Sequence record: NC_031934.1
From: Escherichia phage MX01
DNA: 64,000 nt
Reading direction: 5' to 3' (one strand)
A model generated the notes under the pieces. It did no database searches. It was given only the letters and a program-made list of their open reading frames with translations, and was not told where the DNA came from. This document shows positions 7,133 through 58,620 of the stretch, piece after piece (position 1 is the first letter of the stretch; each line of letters starts with the position of its first letter). The translations under genes and the position numbers were made by a program.

Positions 7133-7318
7133 TTACTCACCTTTTGCAATTTTATCCATAACGATAGCGATTAAACCGATTAGAAATGCTACTACCAATG
7201 AGATAGAATTTTCTGTTGTTGTCAGTAGTCCACAAATGAATCCTACAAACATCGAAAAACTAAAAGCCATTGAAGCAATTACTACAGCAACATTACGAAT
7301 CAGTTCAGCGCGTTTCAT
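7133..7318 (-). CDS. small membrane protein
   Basis: 61 aa, two hydrophobic helices; RBS GAGGAGAAT. Confidence 0.5.
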   Translation of the reverse strand: MKRAELIRNVAVVIASMAFSFSMFVGFICGLLTTTENSISLVVAFLIGLIAIVMDKIAKGE

Positions 7319-7346
7319 TTTATTCTCCTCAGTAGTTGATAGGGTA

Positions 7347-7376
7347 ATAGTATCACTACCCTATCTAAAAGTAAAC
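7347..7376 (-). promoter_or_regulatory. early-type promoter GTTTAC-N18-TGaTACTAT
   Basis: Minus-strand reading GTTTACTTTTAGATAGGGTAGTGATACTAT; -10 sits in the loop of a 6-bp stem AGGGTA/TACCCT. Confidence 0.45.
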
Positions 7377-7387
7377 GGTTTTATAAA

Positions 7388-7696
7388 CTATTTTATTCCG
7401 CGTGATGCAATCGTATTCTGCCGTTTAACGCCAGTTTGTTTAAAGTTATGATTGTCGAGTTGATCGGTACGAGCAACTCCGAATGATGATTTAATCTTAG
7501 CTTTAGATCCTTTAGTTATAGAAATATACATCTCGGGAGCCCCTTTCTTAAAGTCCGAAGCAATTACTTCAACACCGTTCTTAGCAAGTGACTTCAGAAT
7601 TGCTTCCGCATACTCATCATCAAGACCCGCTTGAGTATGAATAATGAATGTCTTTGGTGCAGCCGCTTCATTGATAAATTCTTGATATGTTTTCAT
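7388..7696 (-). CDS. internal protein (ip) with capsid-targeting N-terminus MKTYQEFINEA
   Basis: Begins MKTYQEFI, the conserved leader of T4 internal proteins IPI/IPII/IPIII (from memory); ATG 7694-7696 preferred over the track start. Confidence 0.65.
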   Translation of the reverse strand: MKTYQEFINEAAAPKTFIIHTQAGLDDEYAEAILKSLAKNGVEVIASDFKKGAPEMYISITKGSKAKIKSSFGVARTDQLDNHNFKQTGVKRQNTIASRGIK

Positions 7697-7730
7697 TTTG
7701 ATTTCCATTTAGTTTTGTTTTGATAGGGCT

Positions 7731-39988: not shown

Positions 39989-41548
39989 ATGAAAAAGAAT
40001 GCATTAGTTCAAAAATGGTCCGCTCTGCTGGAAAACGAAGCCCTTCCTGAAATCGTGGGTGCTTCTAAACAAGCTATCATCGCTAAAATTTTCGAAAACC
40101 AGGAACAAGACATCCTGACTGCCCCGGAATACCGTGATGAAAAAATCTCTGAAGCATTTGGTTCTTTCCTGACCGAAGCTGAAATTGGTGGTGACCACGG
40201 TTATGATGCTACCAATATCGCAGCTGGCCAGACTTCTGGTGCTGTAACTCAGATTGGGCCGGCAGTAATGGGTATGGTTCGTCGTGCTATTCCTCATCTG
40301 ATTGCTTTTGATATTTGTGGTGTTCAGCCTCTGAATAACCCTACCGGCCAGGTATTTGCCCTTCGTGCAGTTTATGGTAAAGACCCTATCGCTGCTGGCG
40401 CTAAAGAAGCTTTCCATCCGATGTATTCTCCGGACTCTATGTTCTCTGGTCAGGGTGCTGCTGAATCTTTCGAAGCACTGGCTGCAAGCAAAGTTCTGGA
40501 AGTTGGTAAAATTTATTCTCACTTCTTCGAAGCTACCGGTGCTGCACACTTCCAGGCAGTTGAAGCCGTAACCGTTGATGCTGCTGCTACTGATGCCGCT
40601 AAACTGGATGTTGCTGTTACCGCTTTGATTGAAGCTGGTAAGTTGGCTGAAATCGCTGAAGGTATGGCTACTTCTATCGCTGAACTTCAGGAAGGCTTTA
40701 ACGGTTCCCAGGATAACCCGTGGAACGAAATGGGCTTCCGCATCGACAAACAAGTTATCGAAGCTAAATCCCGTCAGCTGAAAGCAAGCTATTCTATCGA
40801 ACTGGCACAGGACCTTCGTGCAGTACACGGTATGGATGCAGACGCTGAACTGTCCGGTATCCTTGCTACCGAAATTATGCTCGAAATCAACCGTGAAGTT
40901 ATCGATTGGATTAACTACTCTGCACAGGTTGGTAAATCTGGCCAGACTCAGACCGTTGGTTCTAAAGCTGGTGTGTTTGACTTCCAGGACCCGATTGATA
41001 TCCGTGGTGCTCGTTGGGCCGGTGAGAGCTTTAAAGCCCTTCTGTTCCAGATTGATAAAGAAGCAGCCGAAATCGCTCGTCAGACCGGTCGTGGTGCTGG
41101 TAACTTCATCATCGCTTCCCGTAACGTAGTTAACGTACTGGCTGCAGTTGATACTTCTGTAAGTTATGCAGCTCAAGGTCTGGGTCAAGGTTTCAACGTT
41201 GACACAACCAAAGCAGTATTTGCCGGTGTTCTTGGTGGTAAATATCGCGTTTACATCGACCAGTATGCACGTTCCGATTACTTCACCATCGGTTATAAAG
41301 GCGCTAACGAAATGGACGCAGGTATCTACTACGCTCCGTACGTTGCACTGACCCCGCTGCGTGGTTCCGATCCGAAGAACTTCCAACCGGTAATGGGCTT
41401 CAAAACTCGTTACGGTATCGGTATCAACCCGTTCGCTGACCCGTCTGCACAGGCTCCTACCAAACGTATTCAGAGCGGTATGCCTGACATCGTTAACAGC
41501 CTTGGTCTGAATGGTTACTTTAGACGCGTCTACGTTAAAGGAATTTAA
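39989..41548 (+). CDS. 23: gp23 major capsid protein
   Basis: 519 aa; size and position as T4 gp23. Confidence 0.97.
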   Translation: MKKNALVQKWSALLENEALPEIVGASKQAIIAKIFENQEQDILTAPEYRDEKISEAFGSFLTEAEIGGDHGYDATNIAAGQTSGAVTQIGPAVMGMVRRAIPHLIAFDICGVQPLNNPTGQVFALRAVYGKDPIAAGAKEAFHPMYSPDSMFSGQGAAESFEALAASKVLEVGKIYSHFFEATGAAHFQAVEAVTVDAAATDAAKLDVAVTALIEAGKLAEIAEGMATSIAELQEGFNGSQDNPWNEMGFRIDKQVIEAKSRQLKASYSIELAQDLRAVHGMDADAELSGILATEIMLEINREVIDWINYSAQVGKSGQTQTVGSKAGVFDFQDPIDIRGARWAGESFKALLFQIDKEAAEIARQTGRGAGNFIIASRNVVNVLAAVDTSVSYAAQGLGQGFNVDTTKAVFAGVLGGKYRVYIDQYARSDYFTIGYKGANEMDAGIYYAPYVALTPLRGSDPKNFQPVMGFKTRYGIGINPFADPSAQAPTKRIQSGMPDIVNSLGLNGYFRRVYVKGI

Positions 41549-41578
41549 TGCTTTAACGTTAAAAATACATAACCTTAT

Positions 41579-41610
41579 GGGAGACTTCGGTCTCCCATTC
41601 TTGTTTCTGT
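41579..41610 (+). terminator. intrinsic terminator after gene 23
   Basis: GGGAGAC-TTCG-GTCTCCC followed by ATTCTTGTTTCTG. Confidence 0.6.
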
Positions 41611-41611
41611 A

Positions 41612-41878
41612 CTATGCAATCTTAACTCGGCGGTTGATGATATCACGGAAGTCAATACGATTTTCTTGGATTTTCAGCCAGTTACCGGATTTGTCTTTGG
41701 TATGGGTAGAATATTCGCCGTTCCACCAGAAATCGGTTTCATAAGCCAGAGCTTCGTATTTCTTAACCAATGCATTAACTGCATTACCATTAGGATTGGT
41801 ACCGAATTTTTCTACCAGAGCTTTGATGTCTTTGTCAAGGTTAGAAAGCGTGGTACGGATAAAGTTTAATTTGTTCAT
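41612..41878 (-). CDS. hypothetical small protein, early gene antisense to the late cluster
   Basis: 88 aa from ATG 41876-41878 (GAGGAG RBS in conserved leader); own early promoter upstream. Confidence 0.55.
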   Translation of the reverse strand: MNKLNFIRTTLSNLDKDIKALVEKFGTNPNGNAVNALVKKYEALAYETDFWWNGEYSTHTKDKSGNWLKIQENRIDFRDIINRRVKIA

Positions 41879-41907
41879 TTTTAATCTCCTCATGTTTTGA
41901 TAGGTCT

Positions 41908-41937
41908 ATAGTAACACGACGCTTTTTGTGTGTAAAC
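41908..41937 (-). promoter_or_regulatory. early-type promoter GTTTACA-N17-TGtTACTAT
   Basis: Minus-strand reading GTTTACACACAAAAAGCGTCGTGTTACTATAGACCTATCAAAACATGAGGAG. Confidence 0.45.
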
Positions 41938-41943
41938 CACTTT

Positions 41944-41951
41944 TATAAATA
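41944..41951 (+). promoter_or_regulatory. late promoter TATAAATA for gene 24
   Basis: Exact TATAAATA 30 nt upstream of ATG 41981. Confidence 0.6.
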
Positions 41952-41980
41952 AAATTATATTCTCAATAAGGAAAATAGCA

Positions 41981-43261
41981 ATGGCTAAAATTAACGACCT
42001 TTTAAAAGAGTCGACCACTACTTCGAGTTCTTCGATTGGTCGTCCAAATTTAGTAGCTTTAACCAGAGCTACGACCAAACTGATTTATACCGACCTTGTA
42101 GCTCAGCAGCGTACTAACCAACCTTTGGCTGCTCTATATGGTATCAAATATCTTACAGAAAAAAACGAATTATCTTTCCAGACAGGTGCTACTTATTCTG
42201 GTGCAGTATCCGCTAAAGACCGTGCCACTATCCCAGTTTTCACAGCAGGTGCTGTTTACGCTAAAGATGATTTGTTCCAATTTGAAAACGTAGTTTATAA
42301 AGCTTTGGTAGCAACACCATTTGCCGGTGCTACTGGTGATGAATACGAACAACTTCAAGAAGCTATTGTTAAATTAACCATTCGTATTATGTCTGACGCC
42401 GCACTGACTGAGCGTTTTGAAGGTCCTCAAGAAGTAGATATCTCTGAAGCCAGATTCATCGTTAATAAATGGAACGCTCCGGTTAAATCCCGTAAGTTGA
42501 AGAGTACTGTTACCGTAGAACTGGCTCAAGACCTCGAAGCAAATGGTTTCGATGCCCCTAATTTCTTGGAAGACCTCCTGGCTACTGAAATGGCTGATGA
42601 AATCAACAAAGATATTCTTCAGTCCCTGGTTACGGTTTCCAAGCGTTATAAAGTTGAAGGTTTGTGTGATGATGGCTTAATTGACCTGAGTTATGCTAAC
42701 TCACCGGAAGCTTCTCGCAAGCTTTATGAAATAGTTTGTGAAATGGTTTCTCATATCCAGCGCGCAACCTCTTATACGGCAACTTATGTAGTAGCGAGTA
42801 CTCGCGTAGCCGCTGTTCTGGCTGGTTCCGGATGGTTAAGACACACCCCACAGAACGACAAATATCTTTCTGCAAATGCATACGGATTCCTGGAAAATGG
42901 TTTGCCTGTGTATTGTGATACCAACACGCCAATTGATTATGTTACTGTAGGTGTTAAAGAGGAATTTGGTGGGAAAGAAGCGGTAGGTTCTTTGTTCTAT
43001 GCGCCGTATACAGAAGGCCTTGATTTGGCTGACCCTGAACATGTGGGTACATTTAAAGTGGTCGTTGACCCTGAAAGCCTGCAACCATCTATTGCATTAA
43101 TGGTTCGTTATGCACTGGCTGCTAACCCTTATACGGTTACTGCTGATGATAAACAAGCCCGTATTATTGATGCGACTAATATGGATTTGATGGCGGGACG
43201 TTCTGATATGTCTGTATTGCTTGGTGTGAAACTTCCTAAAGTTTTGACTGAATTAAACTAA
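41981..43261 (+). CDS. 24: gp24 head vertex protein
   Basis: 426 aa; position after gene 23. Confidence 0.95.
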   Translation: MAKINDLLKESTTTSSSSIGRPNLVALTRATTKLIYTDLVAQQRTNQPLAALYGIKYLTEKNELSFQTGATYSGAVSAKDRATIPVFTAGAVYAKDDLFQFENVVYKALVATPFAGATGDEYEQLQEAIVKLTIRIMSDAALTERFEGPQEVDISEARFIVNKWNAPVKSRKLKSTVTVELAQDLEANGFDAPNFLEDLLATEMADEINKDILQSLVTVSKRYKVEGLCDDGLIDLSYANSPEASRKLYEIVCEMVSHIQRATSYTATYVVASTRVAAVLAGSGWLRHTPQNDKYLSANAYGFLENGLPVYCDTNTPIDYVTVGVKEEFGGKEAVGSLFYAPYTEGLDLADPEHVGTFKVVVDPESLQPSIALMVRYALAANPYTVTADDKQARIIDATNMDLMAGRSDMSVLLGVKLPKVLTELN

Positions 43262-43267
43262 CAAAAA

Positions 43268-43296
43268 GGGACCGTAAGGTCCCTTTGTCGTTTATT
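43268..43296. terminator. bidirectional intrinsic terminator between gene 24 and rnlB
   Basis: aaaaaGGGACC-GTAA-GGTCCC-TTTG; U-run on both strands. Confidence 0.7.
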
Positions 43297-44299
43297 TAGA
43301 TACTAGTTCAATCCATACGTGTCTTAAGGTATCTTTTACGCACTCAACGAGCTGCTTTTTAACTTCAACTGGATTTTCCGCATCAGTTAATTCCAATTCT
43401 TCACGGGTGGCTTCTTCAAGGATATCCTGGACAGTCAAGCCCATTACCTTTCCAAAATCCTTCGGCGATACTTCACCAATCTTACTGATAACGTTGTTAA
43501 TACGGTTAACAGTCACATAATCAGTGAATTGCCACATCAAGTCCATATCGTCTTGGGACAAAACTACAGCAGCCTTAATAGGCTTATCAGACTTTTTCTT
43601 CTCGCTGAATTTAGAGTTCTTACATTTAATCGCCACGCGATTTCCATTAGGAAGCCAGATAGGAGTATCAGGTTTAAGTACAAAGCCTTCAGCCGTGAAT
43701 ACTTTACCTTCTACCTTAGGAATAAAGTCTGTCGAGTTTGCAATAGTTAGGCCCGCGTTATCCACCGCAAAATTATAATCAGGAATAACTGAATCAAAGT
43801 CATTAGGTAATTTAATAAGGTCTTCAAAGCTGCCGGTGGCCAGACATGGAGCTACCTTAAACTTATGGATAATACAGAAGGCTTCCATCAATGTATCGGT
43901 TAGAACAGATTCTGAGCCATCTTCTTTAGTAACTCGGATATCGAACACATAAAAGTCTTTATCGCCGTAGTCCACATTCTTCTGGATACCTGTCCCAGCG
44001 AATTCGCCATAAATCTGGTATGACTGGTAATTAATCGATTCAATTAGATGTTGAACAGATTTAATAGAATCAGCATAGTTCTTAAGTACAATTTCATAGC
44101 CATAGAAATCTTCAGCAGGGAGGATAGGGCCAGTGCGCTTGGCGCATGTGACTGCGTCACGTTCTATGATTAAACTAAAGTTGGTTCCATGAATCTTCTC
44201 ACGTGCCACCCATTCACCACCGGTCAAACCATTAGTACGGAGTTTTTCGATAAACTTACTGTTGTAGTGGTTTTCGAGACTGCTATATTTCTTGAACAT
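43292..44299 (-). CDS. rnlB: RNA ligase 2
   Basis: [20 protein letters not shown]...[19 protein letters not shown] matches recalled T4 Rnl2, including the KxHG adenylation lysine motif. Confidence 0.95.
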
Positions 44300-56148: not shown

Positions 56149-56439
56149 TTATTTACGGAACGAAATGAAACCTGCTGCAGTCATTAATGGTTGCTTTTTA
56201 ACAAACACTGTGACTGAAATAGGAGCTTCAGATTCAAGCTGACCAGTCACTACACCATTAAAGATATTTTCAGTTTGTTCTGGATGAGAAAAATTCTCAA
56301 CAGGTCGGATATCAAACTGTTTGTCTTCACCGAAAACTCGACGTAATTCATTACCTACGGCACTGTCAAACACTTCAGAAGCAGGGATAACGTTTTCAAC
56401 TACCAGTTCTTGACCATTAAAACGGAATGCAGATTTCAT
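56149..56439 (-). CDS. hypothetical protein
   Basis: 96 aa; ATG 56437-56439 with GAGGAGAAC RBS in the conserved leader. Confidence 0.5.
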   Translation of the reverse strand: MKSAFRFNGQELVVENVIPASEVFDSAVGNELRRVFGEDKQFDIRPVENFSHPEQTENIFNGVVTGQLESEAPISVTVFVKKQPLMTAAGFISFRK

Positions 56440-56467
56440 AATGTTCTCCTCATGTTTGTGTAAGGTA

Positions 56468-56497
56468 ATAGTACCACATCCTTGTGGTGTTGTAAAC
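56468..56497 (-). promoter_or_regulatory. early-type promoter GTTTACA-N18-TGgTACTAT with conserved leader
   Basis: Minus-strand reading GTTTACAACACCACAAGGATGTGGTACTATTACCTTACACAAACATGAGGAGAAC; -35 overlaps the stop of the upstream alt paralog. Confidence 0.45.
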
Positions 56498-58620
56498 TAC
56501 ATTTTGAATTTATTTGATAAAGAAGAGATGTCCAAAGATGCAGCAAGGATTTCCATAGCTTCGTTGCTTTCAGAAACGGATTCATTAACCAAGAATTGAC
56601 TGAATCCATCCATCAGGCGAACTTCACCAGTTTCCATCAAATGGTCACCATCGTAAACAGATTCGCTGAGCTCTGAAGGAGGTGTTACGGTAGCTTCCAT
56701 AAGGTATTTGTGAGATACTCTATCATTCATGGCAAAAGCTGCTACTTTATCAACCTTCAACAATAATCCACGCGGAAGGATAATTTCTGCTTCTTCGGCA
56801 TATTCTGTAAGGTCACCAGGAGCGATAACTTTAACTGCTTCAGCACCTCGAATAACCATACCAATTTCAGCAATTCTATCTGCAGGACCTTCAGGTGCAA
56901 TTGGATTACCAAACTCGTCTTCTTCCCATTCTACCTCTTCATCATCGACTTCACCCACATCAGATGAACTACCGCTAGCCAATTTAAACAACTCATCAGC
57001 GGAGGATAAAGAACCTTCACCACCAACAAAAACGGCTTGGTTGTCGAGGGCCATATAATTTTTACCAAATTCGCCAAAGATGTTAGGCTTTAATGAGGCT
57101 GACACAAAGTTCTTAAAGTAAAATGTTTTGTTATCGATATTATGACGCAGAATTTTGTATGGCAAATCCTGACCACGATACAAAATAGTACCCTTAGGAA
57201 GTTTAATACCCTTAGTAAATGCTGAGTCTAAATCCTTAATCAATTTAATAGCCGTTGTATTGTTTTCGGATTCAGGTTTACCTAAAAGGAACAAGTTCAT
57301 AGGAGCATATTCAGCTGCGCAATATTCAATAATAGCATTGCTTTCGTCTTTGGTTAGGCCCTTAGGTTTAATGAGCTCACCTGAATAAGCATATGCATCA
57401 CTAATAGAATCGTTAATTAGTTTATAAACGGCTTCCATAGCGAAAGCAATTCGGGATGCTTTCTCTGAAGGGGAGCCTTTAAAACGGGTACTCAGGTTAT
57501 TAACAATTTTCTTAATAATATCCAGACTATTGGTTGTATTGATTTGCGAAAGGCCACTTAAAAGTCTATCGACTTCTGTATTAAAAAATGCCATATTATT
57601 AGAGTAAATTTCAAACCCTTGTTTATCTCTATTAGCATAATTTAGTTTAAATTTACTATCAGTCATTAAAGCGTGTGTGAGAGCAATAGTGTATCTAAAG
57701 TTGGCAAGGTCCTCGCTCTTAGATTTAAACTGAGAAGCCTGGCGCATTTTGGTAATAGCACCTTTTTTAAAGTTCTGACTAATCTGTTCAATACCTTCGT
57801 TCTCAGGGCCTTCAGCCGTGTGAACCGGTACAGAAGCTTCAAACTCGTTATAAACCTGCAATTCTTTAGGGGACAAAGTTTCAGGCTCAGCAGTAGAATA
57901 CTGCGCCGCCGCTGCCATACGACGCGAAATCTTAGTACGAGTAATGACAGCCTTATCAGTACGTTTCTCTTCAACTTGTGCAATAGATGCCGCTACGGCT
58001 TCGACCTTACTTACGGCCTGGCCGGTTTTCTTAGAAACATACACTTCGCCAACTTTAGACTCAACTTTAGTATAAAGATCGGCATTAATTTCAGGCATAC
58101 CCTTGATATCTTCAATATTAGCACCACGACGTACTAAAAGAACGTAGGTATGTTTTCCGCTGAATTGGAACATGTCGTCAACAACTTTAAACTTACCACC
58201 GGTACGAGCCATAGCCAAGCGAGCTAATACGCGCTGAACGGTAGGACCTTTACCTTTCATTTTCTTAGTAGGGAAACGGAACAAAACCGCGTCCATTTTA
58301 AGTTTGTTTATTTGTTCATATATGGTATCGAAAATGGTGTTCAGTGTACCGAGTGGATCGGTACCCAAACCACCCTTGAGTTCTGCCGGAGCGCCTTTAG
58401 CAGATAAACTCATTAAGATAACATGGACGTACTTATCACCCGGCTTAACCATTTTAATAGCATCGCCTTCAGACGCGTATGAAACCATACGCGCTACTAA
58501 ATTGTCATTACCAGGAGCATGGACCGCAAAAATCTGCGGTACGCCCGAGCCAGGTTTAAGATTTGTTACTGGGTAATTTTTTTTATCGCTTTTATCAAAA
58601 ACTTCGTTTAAATTTTCCAT
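56497..58620 (-). CDS. alt: Alt-like ADP-ribosyltransferase paralog 3
   Basis: 707 aa; conserved N-terminal 230 aa; C-terminal R-S-ExE pattern (ILYRGQ, FYFKNFVSASL, EAEIILPRG). Confidence 0.8.
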   Translation of the reverse strand: MENLNEVFDKSDKKNYPVTNLKPGSGVPQIFAVHAPGNDNLVARMVSYASEGDAIKMVKPGDKYVHVILMSLSAKGAPAELKGGLGTDPLGTLNTIFDTIYEQINKLKMDAVLFRFPTKKMKGKGPTVQRVLARLAMARTGGKFKVVDDMFQFSGKHTYVLLVRRGANIEDIKGMPEINADLYTKVESKVGEVYVSKKTGQAVSKVEAVAASIAQVEEKRTDKAVITRTKISRRMAAAAQYSTAEPETLSPKELQVYNEFEASVPVHTAEGPENEGIEQISQNFKKGAITKMRQASQFKSKSEDLANFRYTIALTHALMTDSKFKLNYANRDKQGFEIYSNNMAFFNTEVDRLLSGLSQINTTNSLDIIKKIVNNLSTRFKGSPSEKASRIAFAMEAVYKLINDSISDAYAYSGELIKPKGLTKDESNAIIEYCAAEYAPMNLFLLGKPESENNTTAIKLIKDLDSAFTKGIKLPKGTILYRGQDLPYKILRHNIDNKTFYFKNFVSASLKPNIFGEFGKNYMALDNQAVFVGGEGSLSSADELFKLASGSSSDVGEVDDEEVEWEEDEFGNPIAPEGPADRIAEIGMVIRGAEAVKVIAPGDLTEYAEEAEIILPRGLLLKVDKVAAFAMNDRVSHKYLMEATVTPPSELSESVYDGDHLMETGEVRLMDGFSQFLVNESVSESNEAMEILAASLDISSLSNKFKM

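Follow-up and report, generated by a model that had tools for sequence, protein, structure and literature searches.

A small antisense gene cassette with an early-type promoter between capsid genes 23 and 24 of a JS98-like Dhakavirus

Early promoters of phage T4 follow a consensus of GTTTAC at -35, a TGn motif, a -10 element, and an A/T-rich upstream region (PMC1524935, PMC2988021), and early transcription stops minutes before late transcripts build up (PMC2988021). In T4-type genomes, ORFans are flanked by so-called PeSL cassettes (promoter-early plus stem-loop), and the presence/absence shuffling of early-promoter ORFan cassettes among these phages is established (Arbiol 2010; Comeau 2014). 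The PST/T4 PeSL promoter consensus has been given as TTTACW-N17-TAYWAT (PMC4122927). One intergenic position at which T4-like phages differ is the gap between capsid genes 23 and 24, where T4 carries segD. A 2010 review considered no segD-specific promoter to be identifiable (PMC2988022), while T4 omics data of 2022 class segD RNA as early and detect the SegD protein. For the orthologous position of RB69, the predictions of Nolan et al. 2006 comprise a minus-strand early promoter (Pe:109605) and a plus-strand late promoter (Pl:109573).

We analyzed this gap in a 64,000-nt stretch of phage DNA (hereafter the window) that, judging from its sequence, belongs to a JS98-like Dhakavirus; over the interval, the best DNA match among deposited phages reaches 96% identity at most. 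The original prediction had placed an 88-aa ORF on the minus strand of the gap, pointing against the late genes and bounded by a hairpin behind gene 23 on one side and by the gene 24 late promoter on the other. ORF, orientation, and both flanks were borne out, and the parts of the locus are the following (window positions):

39989–41548, plus strand: gene 23, major capsid protein, the left flank; a 519-aa ORF whose syntenic CDS is gp23 in JS98 and many relatives
41577–41598, both strands: stem-loop ATGGGAGAC-TTCG-GTCTCCCAT, found by terminator scan and folding
41612–41878 including the stop codon, minus strand: 88-aa gene (JS98 orf173 family, phrog_6003), supported by ORF, profile match, dN/dS, and model
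41886–41891, minus strand: Shine-Dalgarno sequence GAGGAG, 7 nt ahead of the ATG at 41878
41908–41916, minus strand: putative extended -10 element TGT-TACTAT, read from the sequence (TGn at 41916–41914, TACTAT at 41913–41908)
41931–41937, minus strand: putative -35 element GTTTACA (TTTACA at 41936–41931), with a 17-nt spacer to the -10 element
41944–41951, plus strand: gene 24 late promoter TATAAATA, 29 nt ahead of the gene 24 ATG
41981–43261, plus strand: gene 24, capsid vertex protein, the right flank, in single copy; a 426-aa ORF, gp24 in relatives

The whole gap spans 41549–41980. Read along the minus strand, the reverse complement of TATAAATA is followed by GTTTACA, the 17-nt spacer, TGT-TACTAT, a 16-nt leader, GAGGAG, 7 nt, and the ATG; after 88 codons, the TAG at 41614–41612 is separated by 13 nt from the stem-loop, which on this strand reads ATGGGAGAC-CGAA-GTCTCCCAT (41598–41577). 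Only 6 nt lie between the early -35 element and the divergent late TATAAATA of gene 24. The list of open reading frames also offered a 93-aa version starting at an in-frame ATG at 41893, within the Shine-Dalgarno region, but none of the annotated homologues uses that start. All of them begin with M(N/T/K)K, and the CDS annotated in JS98 measures 267 nt, which makes 88 aa the right length.

The promoter had been described as GTTTACA-N17-TGtTACTAT. All of its elements are present, though the count was slightly off because the 17 nt actually separate TTTACA from TACTAT. Its assignment to the early type holds up on sequence grounds: GTTTAC at -35, a 17-nt spacer, TGT as the TGn motif, and TACTAT as the -10 element are preceded by the A/T-rich TTATTTATAAAAG, as in the T4 early consensus, and the PeSL consensus fits as well. 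Mere resemblance to a sigma-70 promoter carries no information here since a scan with the bare consensus returned 6 sites compared with 8.6 expected in shuffles. The composite of GTTTAC, N17-19, TAnnAT, leader, and GAGGAG occurs three times in the window versus 0 expected, always on the minus strand ahead of small ORFs; GAGGAG itself, predicted as a conserved leader and found at 41891–41886, thus recurs at two further early-type promoters. An alignment of six phages from four genera shows TTTACA and the late TATAAATA to be invariant and most of the -10 element to be kept (TACTAT in JS98, EcoM005, and TU01, CATAAT in VR7, and TATTAT at T4 segD), while spacer and leader drift. Another sigma-70-like site slightly upstream (TTGCTA-16-TATAAT, 41981–41954) was set aside as a chance match because JS98 does not conserve it.

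The two other modules of the type GTTTAC...TACTAT...GAGGAG are located at 7325–7376 and 56446–56497, both on the minus strand. The former precedes a 61-aa hydrophobic, membrane-like ORF (7133–7318); the latter precedes a 96-aa ORF (56149–56439) and lies directly against the 3' terminus of a 707-aa ORF (56497–58620) that we take to encode the Alt ADP-ribosyltransferase. The -35, -10, and GAGGAG elements are common to the three modules, and the 38-nt promoter-leader of the 88-aa gene has no second copy within 3 mismatches in the 64-kb window, which is part of the genome.

At the other end of the gene, the stem-loop has folding energies of -18.2 (plus strand) and -18.8 kcal/mol (minus strand), with z at about -5.4, and is kept in JS98, VR7, TU01, and T4. 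Its sequence suggests a double role as terminator of gene 23 on the plus strand, where a T-rich tail follows, and as 3' hairpin of the small-gene mRNA on the minus strand. There, no U-run stands directly behind the stem, so that termination may be incomplete and the shielding of gene 23 is uncertain; in VR7, a proper T-run follows the hairpin. In Rfam, the hairpin drew a sub-threshold match only, to PhrS, which scored 17.6 bits where the gathering score is 37. Beyond the right flank, the lone gene 24 is followed directly by rnlB on the opposite strand (43292–44299), with a second, perfectly symmetric stem-loop (AAAGGGACC-GTAA-GGTCCCTTT, 43265–43286) between these convergent genes that scores as terminator-like on both strands. 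In contrast to the window, gene 24 is duplicated in tandem (24a/24b) in JS98, VR7, and two metagenomic relatives.

The homology search and synteny comparison that had been suggested as checks were carried out. The ORF is JS98 orf173 and belongs to phrog_6003, a family of unknown function (E 2.2e-49 over residues 1–88 of the 90-position profile) that all 19 aligned members match; the product is 100% identical to hypothetical proteins of phages AnYang, KIT01, and C6. By tblastn, the window protein retrieved 129 phage records and the Mosigvirus version 238, of which about half are of the Mosigvirus type and the rest of the Dhakavirus/Gaprivervirus type plus one phage classified among the Vequintavirinae, ABPH49. 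All T4-like genomes examined (JS98, EcoM005, VR7, TU01, and two long metagenome contigs) have the gene antisense in the 23–24 gap, and this fixed location and orientation is common to Dhakavirus, Gaprivervirus, and Mosigvirus. The homologue of ABPH49 and that of a related metagenome contig are instead found in an array of small ORFs that share one strand and are set apart by stem-loops; by analogy, this looks like a typical early accessory context. In both, GC-rich stem-loops bracket the homologue (L011 3915–3960; L004 2425–2450 and 2770–2795), and L011 additionally shows a promoter-like TTTACT-16-TATTAT whose -35 element lies inside the loop of the upstream hairpin, i.e., a PeSL-like arrangement.

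Protein searches on a very large scale contributed only some 20 further clusters, all of them phage-like. Among 1.84 billion representatives, phmmer found family members and just three matches that we treat as spurious: an Ig-like repeat protein (P0024) and a YadA-like adhesin (P0025), giant repeat proteins whose scores add up 5–9 repeats that each match weakly, and P0023, a fragment of 160 aa that is chimeric. An apparent replacement of the C-terminus in endonuclease-carrying phages (82% coverage in tblastn) is an alignment artefact, as collinearity of the proteins extends through the final residue. The gene as such is already known since about 240 phage records annotate it as a hypothetical protein and its RB69 promoter was predicted in 2006; a literature search for the ORF names found them in no paper.

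Comparison of genomes revealed that the 23–24 gap comes in four natural states:

Empty gap: RB14 and Klebsiella phage Mexia, both T4-like, and by span length most of the Tequatroviruses listed; hairpin, about 13 nt, and TATAAATA, the early promoter being absent
ORF only: the window and the majority of the carriers listed
ORF plus endonuclease gene: among others EcoM005 and IME08; product 57% identical to T4 SegD, starting 3 nt past the ORF stop
segD only: T4, behind TTTACA-17-TATTAT with TGn, in column-for-column alignment with the ORF promoter

The 326 bases from 41612 to 41937 are the difference between the occupied gap and the empty gap of RB14 and Mexia, and it is therefore fair to call the gene inserted between genes 23 and 24, as had been proposed. 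With a GC content of 0.393 for the ORF and 0.399 for the window on average, the insertion is old rather than a recent arrival.

In T4 (NC_000866), the aligned promoter with its TGn-extended -10 lies at 107,253–107,281 on the minus strand (L006 5254–5282), upstream of segD. From its sequence, we suggest that T4 segD has a good sigma-70-type promoter homologous to that of the 88-aa ORF, which is the only point of this study that goes slightly beyond the literature consulted. The early class of segD RNA is no proof that this promoter fires because read-through is possible from rnlB, 24.2, and 24.3, which lie upstream on the same strand and are early as well. In vB_EcoM_005 (L002 2771–3430), the SegD ortholog ends just ahead of the shared hairpin and has neither a promoter of its own nor a clear ribosome site, and is thus probably co-transcribed with the ORF. 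Going by these arrangements, the promoter slot would double as the place from which homing endonucleases of the SegD type are expressed, both in T4 and in segD-carrying Dhakaviruses.

That the ORF is a real gene is evident from its codons: within Dhakavirus, where synonymous sites are unsaturated, dN/dS is 0.04–0.09, which shows a protein under strong purifying selection. Absence or disruption in close relatives with no replacement had been named as an observation that would speak against the original prediction, and in part this is what is seen. RB69 ORF189c and ORF188c are one gene that, compared with TU01, is split by a +1 and a -1 frameshift, with promoter, ribosome site, and hairpin intact beside the broken gene (109,291–109,531, minus strand; L012 8292–8532); a few isolates have shortened versions of 51–64 aa, and most Tequatroviruses lack the gene. 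Given the selection on its codons, this partial loss marks the gene as dispensable, not as unreal: the frameshifted copy of RB69 shows that phages can do without it, and together with the shortened versions it argues that its benefit is conditional.

The protein has a mass of 10.3 kDa, a pI of 9.5, and a GRAVY of -0.71, i.e., it is small, basic, and hydrophilic. Neither a signal peptide nor a membrane segment is seen in its 88 residues, and from its sequence the product is expected to be cytoplasmic and has no enzyme-like features. AlphaFold2 with an alignment of 19 sequences predicts an α-α-β-hairpin-α fold with high confidence (pLDDT 93.3) that comprises helices 3–25 and 31–48, a β-hairpin of strands 52–61 and 67–71, and helix 77–87; a BFVD model made independently for the ABPH49 homologue can be superposed on it at TM 0.90. 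Residues M1, K3, F6, N30-G31-N32, N35, A45, and Q71 are invariant. The structure and family libraries searched gave no meaningful neighbor: the best Pfam match, DUF5380 (E 0.075–0.12, in 5 of the 19 members), is not usable, and NCBIfam and PADLOC gave nothing usable for the protein.

Taken together, we consider it somewhat better than an even bet that the locus is a self-contained 326-bp cassette of promoter, leader, and ORF for an early accessory gene, pointing against the late genes, whose small basic product binds a macromolecule of host or phage. The gene would be expressed early, as suggested by its promoter and by analogy to T4 segD and RB69: unmodified host sigma-70 RNA polymerase would initiate at around 41901 in the first minutes of infection, as at T4-type early promoters, and an mRNA of about 300 nt would end at, or be stabilized by, the shared hairpin, which in turn would shield gene 23 from most antisense read-through. 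The ribosome site GAGGAG contains GGAG, the motif recognized and cleaved by RegB, and close relatives in which the ORF is present, e.g., LF82-3 and VR5, have genes for RegB orthologues. Shut-off of the message by RegB is therefore plausible from the sequence, and the GGAG of the leader would leave it open to cleavage at early shut-off. The product might then act stoichiometrically by binding its host or phage partner in the service of host takeover or counter-defense, in analogy to most small early ORFs of T4; given its positive charge, a nucleic acid or an acidic protein would be the likelier partner. More tentatively, with the odds rather against it, the orf173 family may represent an early effector of counter-defense or takeover whose fold is without a solved relative and which three genera of coliphages retain in antisense at a single, constant site inside the capsid operon; its conserved promoter would then also drive early segD in T4.

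Other readings assign the product to the phage itself. It could be a nucleic-acid-binding regulator of the phage program, e.g., acting on DNA or mRNA of the head region, instead of a host-directed effector. Such a role would suit the net positive charge of all subfamilies (+4 to +6, counted from the sequences), the invariance of polar residues (K3, N30-G31-N32, N35, and Q71), and the fixed position inside the head-gene cluster of three genera. Yet the searches returned no match to a family or fold that binds DNA or RNA, be it helix-turn-helix, ribbon-helix-helix, or another, the homologues of ABPH49 and the related contig are encoded far from head genes, and RB69 manages with a broken copy, so that we regard a regulator as doubtful. 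Far less probable still is a polymorphic internal head protein that would be packaged and injected. A small, basic protein encoded among head genes could be one, and Mosigvirus-type members weakly match phrog_8765 "internal virion protein" (E 0.0015–0.05), but these matches are confined to one closely related subgroup. T4 internal head proteins start with a capsid-targeting sequence, MKTYQEF..., that is cleaved by the gp21 protease, while the 88-aa protein begins MNKLNFIRTT; the minus strand carries no late promoter, and hhalign against T4 IPI and IPII gave probabilities of 0.1–2%. On these grounds, we rejected this identity. The window does encode a homologue of an internal head protein elsewhere (phrog_2667, 106 aa, 7388–7708 on the minus strand), with MKTYQEFINE behind a short N-terminal extension, and the true start of this ORF is probably the second Met.

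It is also conceivable that the protein is beside the point. Expression of the capsid genes might be delayed by early minus-strand transcripts that run through the hairpin and act antisense to gene 23, or by promoter occupancy that blocks the gene 24 late promoter, considering that the early -35 element lies 6 nt from TATAAATA, that the minus-strand hairpin lacks an adjacent U-run, and that the promoter is kept both in RB69 with its broken ORF and in T4, which has segD instead. We think this unlikely because the codons are under strong purifying selection, which means that it is the protein that is selected, and further because VR7 has a proper T-run behind its hairpin, an empty gap with no cassette does not keep phages from expressing genes 23 and 24, and early transcription is over minutes before late transcripts accumulate (PMC2988021). 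An antisense-RNA role may exist as a side effect but is not the reason for codon conservation. No more credence is due to the view that the slot is chiefly a landing site for homing endonucleases, with promoter and ORF persisting because genes of the SegD type ride on them, and that the ORF is a passenger on a mobile cassette or what is left of one, moved by shuffling of the PeSL kind. The four states of the gap, the promoterless segD ortholog 3 nt behind the ORF stop, the stem-loop-flanked family members in unrelated phages, and the documented PeSL-mediated shuffling would all agree with it. However, most of the carriers listed have the ORF without an endonuclease gene, the ORF is under purifying selection and has the GC content of its genome rather than that of a recent arrival, and no stem-loop directly precedes the promoter, as PeSL requires.

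We thus retain the early accessory-gene cassette as our reading, and as such it is ordinary for T4-like genomes. What the 326 bp offer is a tidy, well-delimited example: in the T4 capsid operon, one intergenic slot can be seen in four natural states. The gains are modest, i.e., a confidently modeled candidate small early protein for screens of anti-defense or host-takeover functions and the testable idea of a sigma-70 promoter belonging to T4 segD itself, and neither alters the understanding of T4-like genomes.

Among described systems, the PeSL cassettes share with this locus a strong sigma-70-like early promoter, a stem-loop terminator, and a small, non-essential ORFan that is polymorphic in presence or absence between relatives. 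They differ in that their stem-loop is located upstream of the promoter, a place taken here by the late promoter and start codon of gene 24, while the stem-loop of the 88-aa cassette lies downstream of the ORF and is common to gene 23; moreover, PeSL cassettes populate hyperplastic regions, whereas this cassette sits in the conserved core. The small early T4 ORFs for host takeover or counter-defense resemble the gene in size, early-type promoter, dispensability, patchy distribution, and lack of an enzymatic signature, which is a likeness by class only, as no relation in sequence or fold between the 88-aa protein and characterized examples was found. Closer in place is the segD locus of T4 with the same gap, antisense orientation, aligned promoter, hairpin, and adjoining gene 24 late promoter, but a different cargo: T4 lacks the small ORF and carries a free-standing GIY-YIG homing endonuclease unrelated to the 88-aa protein, which has no GIY-YIG nuclease domain according to Pfam and is less than half as long as SegD. 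The closest counterparts are JS98 orf173, VR7 ORF190c, and RB69 ORF188c plus ORF189c, which agree with the window ORF in full-length homology, gap, antisense orientation, promoter, and hairpin and show no difference of substance from it.
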